From IMG/VR virus record IMGVR_UViG_2534681912_000008: a stretch of DNA of 6,478 bases, one strand, 5' to 3'. The notes under the pieces are model-generated. The model searched no databases and was not told the DNA's origin. It saw only the letters and a list, made by a program, of their open reading frames with translations. Both the position numbers and the translations under genes were made by a program. The stretch is from a virus. Taxonomy: Duplodnaviria > Heunggongvirae > Uroviricota > Caudoviricetes. Shown in pieces: positions 1,091 through 6,160 of the stretch (its first letter is position 1; each line of letters starts with the position of its first letter).

Positions 1091-1855
1091 ATGGAAGAAC
1101 AGCACGGTAATTACTTTATAAAACGAATTCAGTTGATTGGAAGAGGGGCATTTGGCTTTGTTGAACACGTTAAGGTTTACAACCTCAATAAAGGTGAATG
1201 CGGGGATTATGCTAGAAAGGTTTTAGCACCCGAAAAACCAGAGCTTTTGGCGCAAATAGAGCAGTTTAGAAGGCGTTTTAAAAGGGAGGTTGTGTATCAA
1301 TCACATTGCGTACATAGCAATATTGTTCCTATTTATTTGTGCGATTTGTTTGTTGAGAATCCATGGTTCATTATGGATAAAGCAGAATGTGATCTTGAGC
1401 ACGAAATAACGAACAACCTTCTTACAACAGATCAAAAAATTTCAATAGTGAAAATGGTATTAGATGGTGTAGCTTACATCCATGCCAAAGGCTATTTACA
1501 CAGAGATATAAAACCCTTTAATGTTTTGCGATTTAGCGACGGAACATACAAGGTGTCTGATTTTGGTCTGGTAAAAGATACGAATCCCGAAGGGGATACC
1601 ACTAAATTGACCGAGATCGGTACCCGTATGGGAAGTACAAGATATATGGCTCCCGAGATTTTATATAATGCAGAGTATTCAGTTAAGACTGATGTTTATG
1701 CTGTGGGACGGTTAATTGAAGACTTAAATTTAGATGATAAAAAAATAAAGCCTATCATAGCTAAGTGCACAAGGATGGATAAAGATGATAGATATCAGAC
1801 AATAGATGATGTGGCGTTTGATTTTGCGCATTCTTTTTTAAGGAGTGAGTCATGA
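1091..1855 (+). CDS. Hanks-type (eukaryotic-like) Ser/Thr protein kinase, catalytic domain only
   Basis: ATG at 1091 is preceded by GGTGAG at 1081-1086. The ~254-aa product carries the kinase subdomain motifs in order: Gly-rich loop IGRGAFGFV, the conserved Lys in YARKV, a Glu in FKREV, catalytic loop HRDIKPFN (Ser/Thr type), DFG in VSDFGL and APE in YMAPE. No transmembrane or sensor domain is evident. The TTG at 1016 used by the ORF track lies inside the terminator and is rejected as a start. Confidence 0.85.
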   Translation: MEEQHGNYFIKRIQLIGRGAFGFVEHVKVYNLNKGECGDYARKVLAPEKPELLAQIEQFRRRFKREVVYQSHCVHSNIVPIYLCDLFVENPWFIMDKAECDLEHEITNNLLTTDQKISIVKMVLDGVAYIHAKGYLHRDIKPFNVLRFSDGTYKVSDFGLVKDTNPEGDTTKLTEIGTRMGSTRYMAPEILYNAEYSVKTDVYAVGRLIEDLNLDDKKIKPIIAKCTRMDKDDRYQTIDDVAFDFAHSFLRSES

Positions 1856-2595
1856 TTCAGCTGATAGCGACTTCATCATTCTCGTATCCAAAAGAACCAG
1901 GTAGGGTCAACGAAGATTCATTGCTTCCTCCAAAAATTGTAGGAGACGGCATCTTATTTGCCGTAGCTGATGGTGTAGGTTCATACTCTGGTGCCAGTTA
2001 TGCTTCATCCATGGCAATCGCTGAACTTTCAGCATTGACAAGTTTATCTTTTGATGCAGTTCCGAATGTATTTGCTGAAGTTAAGCGAAAAGTTATGTCG
2101 TTAGCTGAAGTTAATGATGAGTTCGATAAAGCTGCTACTACACTTACCTTTTGTTATGTTTGTGATAGCGGAATTATTATTGGTCATATTGGTGATTGTC
2201 GCTTGTATTGCATTGGAGAAAAGAAAGCATATCAATTGACGAAGGACGATACCAGACATCAGATGTTAATTGATCAGAATATTTTTAAACCCAGAGATTT
2301 GAAGAATAAACCGGGAAAAAATATCTTAACGACTGCCATAGCCTCAAATGTTGATATGGAATACGACTGTGATTTTATCCCGTGGAAAGATTTGCCTGGT
2401 ATTAACGGGTTGTATCATCTGTGTATCATGTCTGATGGAGTTCATAACGTTTGGGAAAAACGCCCCAGATTTACATCAAATACTATGAGTAATAGTCAGA
2501 AGTTTTCTAATGGTATTTTGCGTCGTATAGAGAGAGCCGGACCTGATGATGACTTTTCTTTAGTAAGTATAATGGTGCGTGTGACGTCAGATTAG
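1852..2595 (+). CDS. PP2C (PPM-family) Ser/Thr protein phosphatase
   Basis: The start ATG overlaps the kinase stop (ATGA at 1852-1855), with AGGAG at 1838-1842. Metal-binding PPM motifs are present: FAVADGVGS, HIGDCRLY, MSDGV and C-terminal DDDFSLV. Confidence 0.8.
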   Translation: MIQLIATSSFSYPKEPGRVNEDSLLPPKIVGDGILFAVADGVGSYSGASYASSMAIAELSALTSLSFDAVPNVFAEVKRKVMSLAEVNDEFDKAATTLTFCYVCDSGIIIGHIGDCRLYCIGEKKAYQLTKDDTRHQMLIDQNIFKPRDLKNKPGKNILTTAIASNVDMEYDCDFIPWKDLPGINGLYHLCIMSDGVHNVWEKRPRFTSNTMSNSQKFSNGILRRIERAGPDDDFSLVSIMVRVTSD

Positions 2596-2666
2596 TTGTA
2601 TAAACCCAGTAGGGAATGCTAATTTCCCATACTACAGAGTAAAGAAAAACTTAATTTTAATGTGAA

Positions 2667-2692
2667 AAGGCTGCTATCAGGCGGCCTTTTTA
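2667..2692 (+). terminator. Rho-independent terminator closing the kinase-phosphatase cassette
   Basis: GGCTGC at 2669-2674 pairs with GCGGCC at 2681-2686 (one G-U pair) around a 6-nt loop, followed by TTTTT at 2687-2691. Confidence 0.6.
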
Positions 2693-2705
2693 TGTCTGAA
2701 AAGCT

Positions 2706-3032
2706 GTGCAGTACGTTAAACACGCTTGTGGTTGTGAATGCCGACTGCGGCGGTATTTTGGCGTGACAGCGCAGGTGCCGTATACCGATGTCTGGACGCA
2801 TAAACCGGTGCAGTTCTATCCCGGGAAACATCCGTGCGAAAAACCGGCAGAAATGCTGCAGCAGATAATCAGCGCAAGCAGTCGTCCGGGAGACCTGGTT
2901 GCAGATTTTTTTATGGGCTCAGGTTCAACGGTAAAAGCGGCACTGGCGCTCGGGCGTCGTGCGATTGGCGTTGAACTGGAGACCGGACGTTTTGAGCAGA
3001 CAGTCAGGGAAGTTCAGGATTTAATCGTTTGA
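2706..3032 (+). pseudogene. 5'-truncated DNA methyltransferase remnant (N6-adenine/N4-cytosine MTase family, C-terminal AdoMet-binding part only)
   Basis: The translation HPCEKPAEMLQQIISASSRPGDLVADFFMGSGSTVKAALALGRRAIGVE matches the C-terminal HP..KP and D.F.GSG.T motif region of beta-class DNA MTases. Only ~44 codons lie upstream of it, with no DPPY-type catalytic motif. The ORF starts at a GTG directly after an in-frame stop, so the N-terminal domain is missing. Confidence 0.6.
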
Positions 3033-3081: not shown

Positions 3082-3157
3082 GGCCCTTTAGCTCAGTGGT
3101 GAGAGCGAGCGACTCATAATCGCCAGGTCGCTGGTTCAAATCCAGCAAGGGCCACCA
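3082..3157 (+). tRNA. ileZ: tRNA with CAT anticodon, most likely tRNA-Ile2 (lysidine type) rather than tRNA-Met
   Basis: Manual cloverleaf: acceptor GGCCCTT pairs with AAGGGCC; D arm GCTC/GAGC; anticodon loop CTCATAA with CAT at 3115-3117; T loop TTCAAAT; encoded CCA at 3155-3157. It is closely similar to E. coli ileX. The symbol is assigned by synteny with the Stx-phage ileZ-argN-argO cluster. Confidence 0.85.
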
Positions 3158-3164
3158 TCACATA

Positions 3165-3241
3165 CCGCCATTAGCTCATCAGGAAAGAGCGCCAGCCTTC
3201 GAAGCTGGTTGCGCGGAGTTCGGGTCCCCGAAGGCGGTCCA
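3165..3241 (+). tRNA. argN: tRNA-Arg (anticodon TCG), somewhat degenerate
   Basis: Perfect anticodon arm CCAGC-CTTCGAA-GCTGG with TCG at 3199-3201, D arm GCTC/GAGC and an encoded CCA at 3239-3241. The acceptor stem has an A-A mismatch, the T stem an A-C mismatch, and the T loop TTCGGGT has G where the invariant A58 is expected. Confidence 0.6.
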
Positions 3242-3254
3242 TTATCTGTATCCT

Positions 3255-3331
3255 GCGTTGTTAGCTCAGCCGGACAGAGCAATTGCCTTCTAAGCAATCG
3301 GTCACTGGTTCGAATCCAGTACAACGCGCCA
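3255..3331 (+). tRNA. argO: tRNA-Arg (anticodon TCT, decodes AGA/AGG)
   Basis: Canonical cloverleaf: acceptor GCGTTGT pairs with ACAACGC; anticodon arm ATTGC-CTTCTAA-GCAAT; T arm ACTGG-TTCGAAT-CCAGT; discriminator G and encoded CCA at 3329-3331. Confidence 0.9.
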
Positions 3332-3346
3332 CACTTATTTTCCCTG

Positions 3347-3370
3347 GCTCGCTTTTGCGGGCTTTTTTTT
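3347..3370 (+). terminator. Rho-independent terminator after the tRNA cluster
   Basis: GCTCGC at 3347-3352 pairs with GCGGGC at 3357-3362 (one G-U pair) around a TTTT loop, followed by T8 at 3363-3370. Confidence 0.6.
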
Positions 3371-3590
3371 AAATGTCTCACAATTCAGGCGGTTGACTGT
3401 TGTCTGGTTTGCGGGGAGTTTGTTAAAAGAAACTGGCATGGTGAATCCCCCTGTGCGGAGGGGCAATCAGCGAGTAGGTATATGGGATAATCGCGGATTC
3501 AGGTGCTGGTACTGAATTCACCGGGAGGCACCCGGCACCATGCAATGGCACATAGCGCCACTCTCCAGCCCCTCTCCGGAGGGGCTTTTC
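3371..3590 (+). repeat. Direct-repeat unit A (diverged paralogue of unit B), non-coding, ends in an intrinsic terminator
   Basis: Shares collinear blocks with 3832-4078: CTCACAATTCAG, GTTGAC, TTTGTTAAAA, GCATGGTGAATCCCCCTG.GCGGAGGGGC, TCACCGGGAGGCACCCGGCACCATG and AGCCCCTCTCCGGAGGGGCTTT. The segments between the blocks are divergent or differ by indels. Confidence 0.7.
3568..3590 (+). terminator. Rho-independent terminator at the end of repeat unit A
   Basis: GCCCCTC at 3568-3574 pairs perfectly with GAGGGGC at 3579-3585 around a TCCG loop, followed by TTTT. Confidence 0.65.
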
Positions 3591-3779
3591 TGTGCCGGAT
3601 ACATCACAGTTTCTGGAACCTTAGGTACTACAGTATCAGTCAGGGTGCTATATTTTCAGATGTGATGAAAGCCTGTCAGCAGGCAGGGCGTATCGGAAAT
3701 GACCCAGTAGAGAAAACGTTGACTCAGATACCGGTGCTGAGTTACCGGGAAACCGGCATCACATGACCGCTATCCTTCC

Positions 3780-3808
3780 AGGCCCATCCGCTCCGGTGGG
3801 CCTTTTTA
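3780..3808 (+). terminator. Strong rho-independent terminator in the unique segment between the repeat units
   Basis: AGGCCCA at 3780-3786 pairs with TGGGCCT at 3797-3803, with further inner CCG/CGG pairing, followed by TTTTT. Confidence 0.65.
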
Positions 3809-3831
3809 CTGCAGAAAACAGGTTCCCCGTT

Positions 3832-4078
3832 AAATGCTATGTTGCTCACAATTCAGTAAGTTGACAGTTGCCTGTCAGACTGGGCATTTGTTAAAAAAAT
3901 TTCGCATGGTGAATCCCCCTGAGCGGAGGGGCGACTGGTGACGGTATAATCTCTGATTATCAAAACGAGAATGACGCGGGTTTAGTGGCACCGGGCTGAA
4001 CTCACCGGGAGGCACCCGGCACCATGTGCATGATGATACAGATACGCGGCTTTAGCCCCTCTCCGGAGGGGCTTTCTT
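3832..4078 (+). repeat. Direct-repeat unit B (diverged paralogue of unit A), non-coding, ends in an intrinsic terminator
   Basis: Same ordered conserved blocks as unit A, with a perfect TTGACA at 3860-3865 and a perfect TATAAT at 3945-3950. It carries about 25 extra nt in the central divergent segment. Confidence 0.7.
4055..4078 (+). terminator. Rho-independent terminator at the end of repeat unit B
   Basis: GCCCCTC at 4055-4061 pairs with GAGGGGC at 4066-4072 around a TCCG loop, followed by a T-rich run (TTTCTTAT). Confidence 0.6.
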
Positions 4079-4084
4079 ATGGAC

Positions 4085-4113
4085 AAAAAAAGCCCGCGCT
4101 GGGAGACGCGGGC
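4085..4113 (-). terminator. Candidate minus-strand rho-independent terminator, convergent with the unit B terminator
   Basis: GCCCGCG at 4092-4098 pairs with CGCGGGC at 4107-4113 around an 8-nt loop. The A7 run at 4085-4091 on the + strand becomes a U-tract after the hairpin on the minus strand. Confidence 0.45.
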
Positions 4114-4182
4114 GGCAAGGAATAAACAATAAAACGTGAAGTAATATTTCAGCTGGCGAATAATACCCCATAGTAATCACTC

Positions 4183-4204
4183 TGCGCAACTGCGCGGTCT
4201 TTTT
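4183..4204 (+). terminator. Candidate weak intrinsic terminator upstream of nanS-p
   Basis: TGCGC at 4183-4187 pairs with GCGCG at 4192-4196 around a 4-nt loop, followed by a T-rich run at 4198-4204. Confidence 0.35.
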
Positions 4205-4306
4205 CGAATTGCGGGCTGTAGTCTCCCTTCTGCCATTGTCCTGTAACTTCCGGACTTCAGCCTGCTCCTTATCTGACTCACAACATTATCCCGCCCGGGA
4301 GGATTC

Positions 4307-6160
4307 ATGGCATTTAAACACTATGACGTGGTCAGGGCGGCATCGCCGTCAGACCTTGCGAAACGACTGACACAAAAACTGAAGGAGGGCTGGCAGCCGT
4401 TTGGTAGTCCGGTGGCCATAACCCCTTATACCCTGATGCAGGCGATTGCAGCAGAAGGTGATGTGGTCGTCAGTGGTGCAACTGAGCCGGAGTGGTACTA
4501 CGTCATCGTACTGGCCGGGCAATCCAATGCCATGGCTTACGGTGAAGGGCTTCCGCTTCCGGATTCATACGATGCGCCCCATCCGCGCATTAAGCAACTG
4601 GCCCGTCGTAACACAGTGACTCCCGGTGGTGAAGTATGCGTATTTAACGACATCATTCCTGCTGACCATTGTCTGCATGATGTTCAGGATATGAGTACGA
4701 TTAACCATCCCCGGGCTGACCTGAGCAAAGGGCAGTACGGCTGTGTCGGACAGGGCTTACATATTGCCAAAAAACTGCTTCCGTATATCCCTAATAATGC
4801 GGGGATCCTGCTGGTACCATGCTGTCGTGGTGGTTCGGCATTCACCCAGGGCACGGAGGGGACATTCAGCGAGTCCACGGGAGCCAGTCAGGATTCGGCT
4901 CGCTGGGGAGTGGGTAAGCCGTTATATCAGGATCTGCTTTTCCGCACGAAGGCAGCATTGCAGAAAAACCCGAAAAACGTTTTGCTGGCGATATGCTGGA
5001 TGCAGGGGGAATTCGATATGACGAATGCCAGTTACGCCCAGCAGCCAGCAGCATTTCTTGCAATGGTACAGCAGTTCCGTGCTGACCTTGCCGGGCTGGC
5101 AGCGCAGTGTCACGGTGGAAGTCCGGCATCAGTCCCCTGGATTTGTGGCGACACGACATACGCGTGGAAACAAGAACACGGTACGCAATATGAAGTGGTA
5201 TATGGTGCATATAAAGGTAAAGAATCCCAGCAGATTTATTTTGTTCCCTTTATGACCGATGGTAGCGGAGTTAATACACCGACAAACAACCCGTCAGAAG
5301 ATCCTGATATTGTCGGGTCTGGTTATTACGGTTCGGCATCCCGAACGAACAAAAACTGGGTATCATCAAATCGCCCGACGCATTTCAGCTCATGGGCGCG
5401 TCGTGGCATTATTCCCGATCGTATGGCAACTGCTATTCTGAACGTAGCCGGTCGCACCTTAGCCTTCATTAGTGGTAAGGCACCGGAAATCAAACTCTCG
5501 CCCGGCGGCGACACGCCATCGGGGCCGTCTGAAGATGCATCCATACGCACAATCTCCCTGTTGCCGACAGCCGGAGACGCTGCTGCGCAGGGCTGGAGCA
5601 TTAAGAATGGCGGAATTCAGTTGTCAGATGGTGTATTTAAGATCACCAAGCAGAGCAATAAAGCCTGGTCCCTGACGCGCCCGGTGGATGACGCAGTCTC
5701 CCTGCTGACACGGGGTGGCAGACTGAGCTGTAAGTTTCGACTGTCAGGCGCACTGACCAACAATCAGTTCGGTCTGGGAATTTATCTGTATACCGATGTA
5801 GCGTTACCTGACGTCGTGGCGATGACCGGGACTGGTAACCCGTTCCTGATGTCGTTCTTCACCCAGACCACAGACGGCAAACTGAATCTGATGCATCACA
5901 AGAAAGCAGGAAACACAAAGTTGGGCGAGTTCGGGAATTACAGTAACGACTGGCAGACGCTGGAGCTGGTGTTCACCGCCGGCAGTGCCACGGTTACTCC
6001 GAAACTGAATGGAGTGGCTGGCCCGGCATTCCAGGTCATAAAAGACAGTCTGACACTGGGGCTGAATGCGCTGACGCTGACGGATATTACCAAAAATGCA
6101 GCGTATGGCGTTGAGATAGAAAGTCTGGTGCTGGAGATAAATGCACCGGCATCATCATAA
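4307..6160 (+). CDS. nanS: Prophage-type sialate O-acetylesterase (NanS-p-like): N-terminal DUF1737-like region, SGNH/SASA esterase domain, C-terminal beta-rich domain
   Basis: A 617-codon ORF with GGAGG at 4298-4302 before the ATG. The N-terminus MAFKHYDVV... and the GQSN catalytic-serine motif in VLAGQSNAMAYGEG match the NanS-p esterases encoded downstream of stx in Stx phages, recalled from memory. It is the dominant long ORF; all overlapping ORFs are rejected. Confidence 0.85.
   Translation: MAFKHYDVVRAASPSDLAKRLTQKLKEGWQPFGSPVAITPYTLMQAIAAEGDVVVSGATEPEWYYVIVLAGQSNAMAYGEGLPLPDSYDAPHPRIKQLARRNTVTPGGEVCVFNDIIPADHCLHDVQDMSTINHPRADLSKGQYGCVGQGLHIAKKLLPYIPNNAGILLVPCCRGGSAFTQGTEGTFSESTGASQDSARWGVGKPLYQDLLFRTKAALQKNPKNVLLAICWMQGEFDMTNASYAQQPAAFLAMVQQFRADLAGLAAQCHGGSPASVPWICGDTTYAWKQEHGTQYEVVYGAYKGKESQQIYFVPFMTDGSGVNTPTNNPSEDPDIVGSGYYGSASRTNKNWVSSNRPTHFSSWARRGIIPDRMATAILNVAGRTLAFISGKAPEIKLSPGGDTPSGPSEDASIRTISLLPTAGDAAAQGWSIKNGGIQLSDGVFKITKQSNKAWSLTRPVDDAVSLLTRGGRLSCKFRLSGALTNNQFGLGIYLYTDVALPDVVAMTGTGNPFLMSFFTQTTDGKLNLMHHKKAGNTKLGEFGNYSNDWQTLELVFTAGSATVTPKLNGVAGPAFQVIKDSLTLGLNALTLTDITKNAAYGVEIESLVLEINAPASS

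Follow-up and report, generated by a model that had tools for sequence, protein, structure and literature searches.

Genomic Context of the Locus

The stretch of DNA analyzed here, hereafter the window, comprises 6,478 nucleotides of a virus of the class Caudoviricetes (IMG/VR record IMGVR_UViG_2534681912_000008). According to Pfam and PGAP, it carries the genes for RusA (7-258), the antiterminator Q (249-944), a Ser/Thr kinase (1091-1855), a PP2C phosphatase (1852-2595), a truncated N6/N4 methylase (2706-3032), and a NanS-p-like esterase with the domains DUF1737-SASA-DUF6645 (4307-6160), next to which a holin is found. A PR'/tR'-like promoter-terminator is located at about 928-1017. Three tRNA genes (3082-3157, 3165-3241, and 3255-3331) were recognized by ARAGORN and by Rfam tRNA matches. 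They are followed by a plus-strand terminator detected by a terminator scan (3346-3370), which is the upstream limit of an array of small RNA (sRNA) genes. The window is the late, or "moron", region of an stx-less lambdoid prophage, and the sRNA array is located between Q/PR' and the lysis genes.

In the Sakai strain, Hfq-crosslinked "convergent sRNA pairs 3' of PR' in the moron insertion site" were described in eight prophages (PMC4104026), and the context of the window fits this published convergent sRNA dyad downstream of PR'. The 971-bp stretch 3340-4310 occurs at 100% identity in many Escherichia coli chromosomes. At least 80% of its length is present in 353 of 5426 complete genomes and some part of it in 2870. 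No PasA homologue was seen by eye in the window 3' of the esterase gene.

Three Tandem Units

Repeat finding on 3300-4320 gave an 88-nt repeat (3377-3464 and 3845-3932, 80% identity) and a 31-nt block (3512-3542 and 3996-4026, 97% identity), the final 25 nt of which (TCACCGGGAGGCACCCGGCACCATG) are identical and carry a CCGGG-AGGCA-CCCGG hairpin. Another hairpin, CCCCT...AGGGG, differs between the two copies in its loop only (GTGCGG in unit A, GAGCGG in unit B), and the terminator AGCCCCTCTCCGGAGGGGCTTT is identical at 22 of 22 positions (3567-3588 in unit A and 4054-4075 in unit B). The homology begins a little further 5', at TTAAATG. The two repeat units with shared blocks, two hairpins, and a common intrinsic terminator that the original prediction had described are thus present in every feature and at every position given. 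Over their full lengths, unit A (3371-3592) and unit B (3832-4079) share 70% identity. In an Rfam scan of the whole window, both are full-length STnc100 (RF02076) matches above the gathering score (E = 7e-31 for A and 2.5e-38 for B), so their likeness goes far beyond chance. Moreover, the apparent spacer between A and B is a third, diverged copy. Hence, the locus is a three-unit tandem array and not two repeats around unrelated DNA.

Unit A (3371-3592, plus strand) is an STnc100-family sRNA gene of the EcOnc05 type, on the basis of Rfam, the core model R1 described below, its fold, and its identity with the Sakai prophage Sp4. It scores 136.3 bits against RF02076 (3407-3597, model positions 1-206, gathering score 47) and 120.7 bits with R1. 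Its plus-strand features are, from 5' to 3', the motif CTCACAATTCAG (3377-3388), a -35-like TTGTCT (3400-3405), an extended -10-like TGtTAAAAG (3421-3429), a core domain (3436-3543), a variable linker (3544-3566), and a terminator made of a stem-loop (3567-3586) and a U-tail. Within the core, helix P1 (3436-3443/3536-3543) encloses H1 (3448-3452/3459-3463), a variable center (3464-3494), H3 (3495-3502/3512-3519), and H4 (3521-3525/3531-3535).

From the tRNA terminator through the sRNA terminator, positions 3371-3588 of unit A are 100% identical to the Sakai Sp4 locus. The EcOnc05 Northern probe matches the unit at 35 of 35 positions and the EcOnc06 probe at 34 of 35. A published STnc_100 qPCR amplicon, which served to detect "STnc_100" in STEC outer-membrane vesicles (PMC12370729), matches exactly at 3437-3529. 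EcOnc05 itself is an Hfq-CRAC cluster with a Northern band of about 222 nt (Tree 2014, PMC4104026), and through the 100% identity with Sakai EcOnc05 the literature supports the view that unit A is also made as a discrete Hfq-associated RNA. Comparison with EHEC prophages and the Rfam assignment of A and B therefore bear out the proposal that the repeats are paralogous, non-coding, structured sRNA genes of the EHEC-prophage kind.

Unit B (3832-4079, plus strand) is, by Rfam, R1, and fold, also an sRNA gene of the STnc100 family; the copy located downstream of stx2B in Stx2 phages is its paralogue. It scores 165.4 bits against RF02076 (3875-4084, model positions 1-206, gathering score 47) and 110.9 bits with R1. 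The motif CTCACAATTCAG (3845-3856), a -35-like TTGCCT (3868-3873), and an extended -10-like TGtTAAAAA (3889-3897) precede, on the plus strand, the core (3904-4027), which is made of P1 (3904-3911/4020-4027), H1 (3916-3920/3927-3931), H3 (3978-3986/3995-4003), and H4 (4005-4009/4015-4019). A linker (4028-4053) and a terminator with its tail (stem-loop 4054-4073) complete the unit. Unit B is 86% identical to the post-stx2B unit of phage Stx2_95 and 77% identical to the EcOnc27-type unit, and the EcOnc27 probe sequence is absent from it.

The middle unit (3601-3808, plus strand) is a diverged, unannotated member of the STnc100 family, recognized from a sub-threshold Rfam match, the core model, and its fold. 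It has the 5' motif ATCACAGTTTCTG (3602-3614), an extended -10 element TGcTATATT (3646-3654), a core (3660-3764) closed by the P1 strands AUGUGAUG and CAUCACAU, a linker (3765-3779), and a terminator (3780-3803) followed by five T residues, all on the plus strand. Its Rfam STnc100 score (30.1 bits, E = 0.0011, 3636-3809) is below the gathering score of 47. With R1, from the training of which it had been left out, it reaches 38.4 bits (E = 6e-8). Its independently computed minimum free energy fold has the same architecture as those of A and B (z = -2.65). The middle unit is found in 673 of the 5426 complete E. coli genomes and coincides with no annotated feature among the matches listed. The middle copy, like unit B, would be expressed.

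A Convergent Element on the Minus Strand

A putative partner sRNA of the EcOnc08/21/42 type (4085-4278, minus strand) converges on unit B and forms the far end of the array. It was delineated by a terminator and promoter scan, a probe match, and its likeness to Sakai Sp4, and its 5' end is uncertain. Its intrinsic terminator is at 4092-4113, with the T-run at 4085-4091, and a promoter-like site is found at 4285-4313, both on the minus strand. At 4171-4189, the element agrees with the probe core of EcOnc08/21/42 but for one mismatch, and positions 4085-4157 are near-identical to positions 3439-3511 of contig L124 (Sakai Sp4, EcOnc08 Hfq-CRAC cluster). AsxR was suspected at first, since the same element follows an STnc100 unit in an Stx2a phage. 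The conserved 3' part of AsxR/AgvB, about 42 nt (GUAUCUCAUGCWAUUGCCCGAACCCA...), has no match in the window with up to three mismatches, and neither Rfam AsxR nor Rfam AgvB matches the window at E <= 1; the definition of that family also includes a length of 51-60 nt. By its sequence, then, the minus-strand element is of the EcOnc08/21/42 type and not AsxR/AgvB. It also resembles the EPEC RIL-seq candidate E2348C_1409.E2348C_1408.IGR (PMC8550237).

Common Architecture and Covariation

When folded separately, A, B, and the middle unit adopt one common architecture. An 8-bp helix P1 (GCAUGGUG/CACCAUGC) is followed by H1, a variable center, H3 of 8-9 bp, H4, a single-stranded linker, and the terminator. 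The structured domain measures about 105-125 nt per unit. In the window alone, a compensatory pair is already visible in H3, where A-U in unit A becomes G-C in unit B. Compared with A and B, the middle unit has compensatory changes in four of its eight P1 pairs and keeps H3 through two double changes.

The core model R1 was built on 22 distinct phage sequences, with the middle unit and PasD excluded. A full-length MAFFT alignment misplaced the PasD-type sequences, one further contig (L117), and the middle unit, and was therefore replaced by one made with a covariance model and restricted to the core. All covariation figures come from model-fitted alignments, and each sequence set was retrieved via one conserved hairpin. 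With this proviso, 98.1% of the cells pair in 54 distinct phage sequences from IMG/VR contigs, as opposed to about 45% in slid controls, and double changes occur in 19 of 26 pairs, values that no shuffle reached. In the 107 distinct sequences taken from species-representative genomes, the pairing fraction is 93.1% and the covariation score 0.434 (0.147 in shuffled alignments; reached by 0 of 500 shuffles), with compensatory changes in all eight H3 pairs and in seven of the eight P1 pairs. The genera represented include Escherichia, Salmonella, Enterobacter, Klebsiella, Citrobacter, Kosakonia, Pantoea, Erwinia, and Rahnella.

Covariation is strong for P1 and H3 and partial for H1, and H4 is almost invariant. 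Indeed, H1 (GAAUCCCCCUnnGCGGnGGGGC) and H4 (UCACCGGGAGGCACCCGGC) are near-invariant from Escherichia to Pantoea, Erwinia, and Rahnella. This invariance is partly inflated, because the sets were retrieved through one of the two hairpins; nevertheless, the hairpin that was not used for retrieval is also near-invariant in each set. Folding and covariation thus agree with what the original prediction had proposed, namely conservation of structural modules by selection rather than by recent duplication: the helices covary, and A and B are distinct module combinations, each of which is found alone in other prophages.

Some roles for the hairpins were considered and abandoned. The H1 loop varies between GGA, GGC, and GGU, which speaks against a CsrA sponge, and the resemblance of GGUGAAUCC to a tRNA-like T-loop is superficial.

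Promoters and 5' Ends

The sequence TTGTTAAAA, containing an extended -10-like TGnTAAAA, is conserved upstream in nearly all family members. The TGnTAAAA element stands 6-7 nt 5' of GCATGG, just upstream of GCATGGTG, and a -35-like TTGTCT or TTGCCT lies 18 nt upstream of it. Its position agrees with the 5' end of PasD2, which RNA-seq placed at the G of GCAUGGUG (PMC8550237). By analogy with PasD2, unit A would be transcribed from 3436 to about 3592 (about 157 nt) and unit B from 3904 to about 4079 (about 176 nt). The -10-like site of the middle unit is better than those of A and B, and its predicted start, at about 3660, would fall exactly at P1.

Northern sizes of about 222 nt for EcOnc05 and about 235/247 nt for EcOnc27 (PMC4104026) better fit starts near CTCACAATTCAG (about 3377-3380 and 3841-3845) than a start at P1, even after allowing for an excess of about 15 nt of the sizes of the Northern study over the PasD RNA-seq length. 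The 12-mer CTCACAATTCAG is strongly conserved across upstream module types and lies downstream of a TTAAAT or TGTAAT element. Since the PasD2 start and the Northern sizes disagree, the 5' ends are ambiguous.

The -10 elements of the original prediction are a different matter. The hexamers exist (TATAAT at 3945-3950, GATAAT at 3486-3491, and TATATG at 3479-3484), but those at 3945-3950 and 3479-3491 lie inside the variable central loop closed by P1. Other members of the family do not share them, and they were not scored as plus-strand promoters. The transcripts of 90-120 nt expected from them are at odds with the sizes of close relatives: the Hfq-CRAC clusters EcOnc05, 06, 27, 13, and 04 give bands of about 177-247 nt on Northern blots (Tree 2014, PMC4104026). 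Similarly, the parts that differ between copies are the central loop and the 3' linker instead of 5' single-stranded regions.

Module Shuffling and Arrays

Each of 109 standard units was assigned a class for its upstream module (U), its central segment (C), its linker (S), and its downstream neighbor (D). C1 is paired with S1, S2, S5, and S11, and S1 with C1, C4, and C5; all four combinations of C4 or C5 with S1 or S3 occur. In the window, A has the composition U1-C1-S1 and B the composition U0-C5-S3, and a unit of another contig (L084) joins a B-type body to an A-type linker. As the modules combine freely, the invariant blocks are both functionally constrained and used as crossover points. 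Free recombination of linkers and central segments is what would be expected if these carry target specificity.

The comparison with Sakai Sp4 shows such an exchange. The window has 487 extra bp (3589-4075), located exactly between the two identical 22-nt terminators, and in Sp4 unit A is directly followed by EcOnc08. Tandem pairs with the 468-bp spacing of A and B are found in many viral contigs, and four-unit arrays occur in one of them (L007). In Pantoea, cores stand back to back, separated by spacers of 12-21 nt and with one common terminator. Such back-to-back arrays ending in one terminator are seen in L200 (3237-3600), L164, and L191. Units often adjoin phage tRNA genes.

Relationships With Known sRNAs

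The STnc100 sRNAs EcOnc05 and EcOnc06 of Sakai Sp4 and Sp17 resemble the window in their site, after ileZ-argN-argO and before the esterase gene. The EcOnc05 locus of Sp4 also has the same convergent partner, EcOnc08. However, Sp4 has one unit, whereas the window has three in tandem, the middle one being sub-threshold in Rfam, and the window prophage carries the kinase/phosphatase moron where Sp4 has its own genes. In EDL933, the eleven annotated STnc100 copies give rise to transcripts, and a Northern blot verified one of them (PMC5331693).

EcOnc27/sRNA103, the post-stx2B copy, shares with unit B the upstream module, P1, H1, H3, H4, the terminator type, and the place just before the esterase gene. 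In contrast to its locus, the window has no stx, the central loop and the 3' linker of unit B are different, and the partner is of the EcOnc08 type and not AsxR. Overexpression of EcOnc27/sRNA103 raises the fimZ and espA transcripts, and its 5' region overlaps HUS-predictive k-mers (PMC7873438, PMC12711010).

PasD1 and PasD2 (EcOnc13, EPEC E2348/69), which are distantly related, have the same architecture, a site upstream of a sialate esterase gene, and a 5' start GCAUGGUGAAUCC. Northern blots show that both depend on Hfq; in RIL-seq they are joined to many mRNAs as chimeras, and their seed lies just 5' of the terminator (PMC8550237; bioRxiv 10.64898/2026.05.13.724894). A common ancestry of STnc100 and PasD1/2 was already proposed in the 2026 preprint (10.64898/2026.05.13.724894). 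PasD and the window units are 53-57% identical globally, H4 is reduced in PasD, and PasD scores 41.4 bits with Rfam STnc100, below the gathering score. The PasD seed UGUGAG and the GGCUGCGCA terminator are absent from the window, where CCTTGTGAGTTCTGGCTGCGCA has no match with up to three mismatches. This identity level and the missing seed and terminator rule out that any of the units is PasD. The heptamer CTCACAA occurs three times in the window, twice in homologous units; 12 of 200 shuffles reach three, so the count is not significant and its reading as a PasD/GcvB-binding site is speculation.

Finally, the AsxR/AgvB dyads are organized like the window, with a plus-strand STnc100-type sRNA facing a minus-strand sRNA across a shared bidirectional terminator region. 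They differ in the partner, which in the window is the longer EcOnc08/21/42 type and lacks the 3' 42 nt of AsxR/AgvB.

Possible Functions of the Array

Taken together, the region is a tandem array of three paralogous STnc100-family sRNA genes (an EcOnc05-type unit A, a diverged middle unit, and a unit B of the stx2-downstream type) that probably act in trans by Hfq-dependent base-pairing, which is the most likely function. In lysogens, each unit would be transcribed from its own sigma-70 promoter-like site and stop at its own terminator. Its RNA would bind Hfq and pair with host or prophage mRNAs via the variable linker, in which the seed may be located by analogy with PasD; the variable central loop could also contact targets. 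The paralogues would thus use a common scaffold for different targets. During lytic growth, Q-modified RNA polymerase would pass through the terminators of the array. In this scheme, the promoters and 5' ends are predictions and every target is putative. The U-tails, UUUUC and UUUC, are shorter than is typical of strong Hfq binders, which counts against base-pairing through Hfq.

Since both A and B belong to a catalogued family, and A is sequence-identical to a published sRNA, these two units were already known. What is added is the diverged third copy, which current annotation misses among the matches listed, explicit covariation of the core, module shuffling, and the breadth of the family and its arrays across Enterobacterales. 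Few bacterial sRNAs are annotated as abundantly as those of the STnc100 type, one copy of which lies directly behind the Shiga toxin 2 genes. The window is a clean stx-free example of an invariant scaffold with exchangeable central and linker modules and of units being gained or lost where identical blocks recombine. It contains no element of a new kind, overturns nothing, and does not by itself make the function of the family newly testable, but it helps the design of target searches and the improvement of the family model.

A first alternative, which we judge unlikely but worth serious weight, is that the units are mainly cis-acting terminator or insulator modules of the late operon and the RNAs their by-products. 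In lysogens, stacked terminators would keep transcripts from the tRNA or moron promoters out of the esterase and lysis genes, without effect on Q-modified polymerase. Indeed, five terminator-like hairpins lie between the tRNAs and the esterase gene, as compared with 1.2 expected from shuffles over the scanned region, the site keeps its place between PR'/tR' and the lysis cassette, and no block agrees more exactly between A and B than the terminator. However, a terminator needs no upstream domain of 105-125 nt with covarying helices and invariant hairpins, and members of the family are stable, Hfq-bound RNAs. Insulation is also compatible with trans-acting sRNAs as a second function.

The high conservation of H1 and H4, neither of which is a seed, and the back-to-back cores of Pantoea suggest that the domain has a partner beyond base-pairing. 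Accordingly, the P1-H1-H3-H4 core might be a protein- or ligand-binding module (decoy, sponge, or aptamer), with binding rather than seed pairing as the ancestral function. H1 and H4 are near-invariant across genera while P1 and H3 covary freely, arrays of cores can end in one common terminator, and the frequent vicinity of phage tRNA genes also fits. Yet we find this reading doubtful. No Rfam riboswitch or protein-binding family matches, nor does any Rfam cis-regulatory family in 3371-4079; relatives of the PasD type act as ordinary Hfq base-pairing sRNAs; and retrieval through one hairpin inflates the apparent invariance. An attenuator version is itself unlikely, as the P1 3' strand has no obvious alternative pairing with the terminator in the folds of A, B, and the middle unit. 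Control of a downstream gene by attenuation is further disfavored by the hypervariable linkers and the varying downstream neighbors of the 109 units.

A broader conjecture combines several of these elements, and we put it forward tentatively, as more probably wrong than right. It takes the middle unit to be functional, to be transcribed separately, and to belong to a diverged STnc100 subfamily found in about 12% of complete E. coli genomes. For the STnc100 core, it supposes a structured module of invariant sequence in Enterobacterales temperate phages, often arrayed back to back without individual terminators and primarily binding a conserved protein or other partner, to which shuffled linkers and central loops would have been added later as exchangeable parts for targeting.

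The original prediction had named recombination scars flanking a cargo insertion point as its alternative. The view that the repeats are non-functional scars, or duplication remnants at such a site, has several points in its favor. The site is a known moron insertion site, crossover at conserved blocks is real, as the 487 bp between identical terminators relative to Sp4 illustrate, stx2AB lies directly upstream of a B-like unit in Stx2 phages, and an IS3-family element is inserted between units in one contig (L034). As a description of the units it is very improbable, however: compensatory changes preserve the helices, the diverged middle copy included, a promoter-like site and a terminator are kept in every unit, and identical sequences are expressed and Hfq-bound in EHEC.

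Finally, it is hardly credible that the units code for small proteins or are pieces of some gene or insertion sequence, despite ribosome footprints on some EDL933 STnc100 copies (PMC5331693), because no open reading frame in 3209-4308 matches Pfam or NCBIfam, frames and stops differ among A, the middle unit, and B, as had been noted at the outset for the small reading frames, and substitutions track base pairs, not codons. The one annotation in its favor, a partial "hypothetical protein" pseudogene that PGAP puts on the minus strand across unit A, is probably an artefact.

A Third STnc100-Like Gene and Related Arrays

The interval between the two STnc100 sRNA genes, units A and B, apparently a spacer, contains a third, diverged STnc100-like gene on the plus strand (3601-3808). 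This middle unit has an extended -10 element (TGcTATATT, 3646-3654) and a terminator of its own, and its P1 helix is preserved via four compensatory changes. Its Rfam score is below the gathering score of the STnc100 model. The middle unit is carried by 673 of 5426 complete E. coli genomes; none of the matches listed bears an annotated feature. In contig L034, the array is similar to that of the window, except that an inserted IS3-family element (orfA/orfB transposase, 3130-4286) separates the middle-type unit from the STnc100 unit after it.

Larger arrays, made up of four to six STnc100 cores, are found in Pantoea (including one megaplasmid), Superficieibacter, Enterobacter, and an IMG/VR contig (L200 2035-3651, L164 894-2010, L191, L153, and L007 2265-3380). 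tRNA genes are frequently interspersed in these arrays. In L200 (3237-3600), three cores lie back-to-back with spacers of 12-21 nt and a single terminator common to all. The 21-nt block of hairpin H4 also matched contigs labelled Prolixibacteraceae, Mucilaginibacter, and Vagococcus (L139, L183, and L202). Full STnc100 cores (75-84 bits) are present in these contigs, which likely reflect contamination with enterobacterial sequence. Two Streptomyces contigs having the H4 block (L148 and L174) gave no match with the core model, and their H4-block matches are probably due to chance.

Conserved 5' Motif and Possible Pairing Partners

Units A and B open with CTCACAATTCAG (3377-3388 in unit A, 3845-3856 in unit B), a motif that is kept in most upstream module types of the STnc100 family. 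A further CTCACAA sequence is located at 4277-4283, 24 nt upstream of the start codon of the NanS-p-like esterase gene. CTCACAA is complementary to the UGUGAG seed of the PasD sRNAs of EPEC and is similar to the motif targeted by GcvB. The number of copies in the window does not depart significantly from chance, with 12 of 200 shuffles reaching it.

Minus-Strand Features of the sRNA Locus

Downstream of unit B, a convergent sRNA of the EcOnc08/21/42 type is encoded on the minus strand (4085-~4278). Its terminator (4092-4113 plus T7) is strong, and its promoter-like site lies at 4285-4313. This sRNA is similar to the EPEC RIL-seq candidate E2348C_1409.E2348C_1408.IGR, and it would run antisense to the esterase 5' UTR. 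On the same strand, antisense to unit A, RefSeq/PGAP places a partial pseudogene labelled "hypothetical protein" (3426-3551, corresponding to 6087-6212 of contig L001). A comparable partial pseudogene overlaps PasD2 in E2348/69, and the pseudogene over unit A is probably an annotation artefact, derived from translated sRNA genes.

Upstream tRNA, Late Promoter, and Moron Region

The middle tRNA (3165-3241), an argN-like Arg-TCG, scores only 43 bits, against 70-72 bits for its neighbors. Its acceptor and T stems contain several non-canonical pairs, and it may represent a degenerate phage tRNA.

Directly 3' of the antiterminator gene Q, the plus strand carries a PR'-like promoter (TTGCAA-17-TATATT, plus a second TGaTATATT) and, after it, a tR'-like terminator (CCCGC...GCGGG plus T6), all within 928-1017. 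In Stx phages, short RNAs of the StxS type originate at the equivalent position; Rfam gave only weak Leu/Trp-leader matches at 928-1017. From Q to the tRNAs, the moron cargo (1091-3032, plus strand) encodes a Ser/Thr kinase of eukaryotic type and a PP2C phosphatase overlapping the kinase, together with the C-terminal part of an N6/N4 DNA methylase. At the equivalent position, the Stx2 phage Stx2_95 carries an intact methylase.
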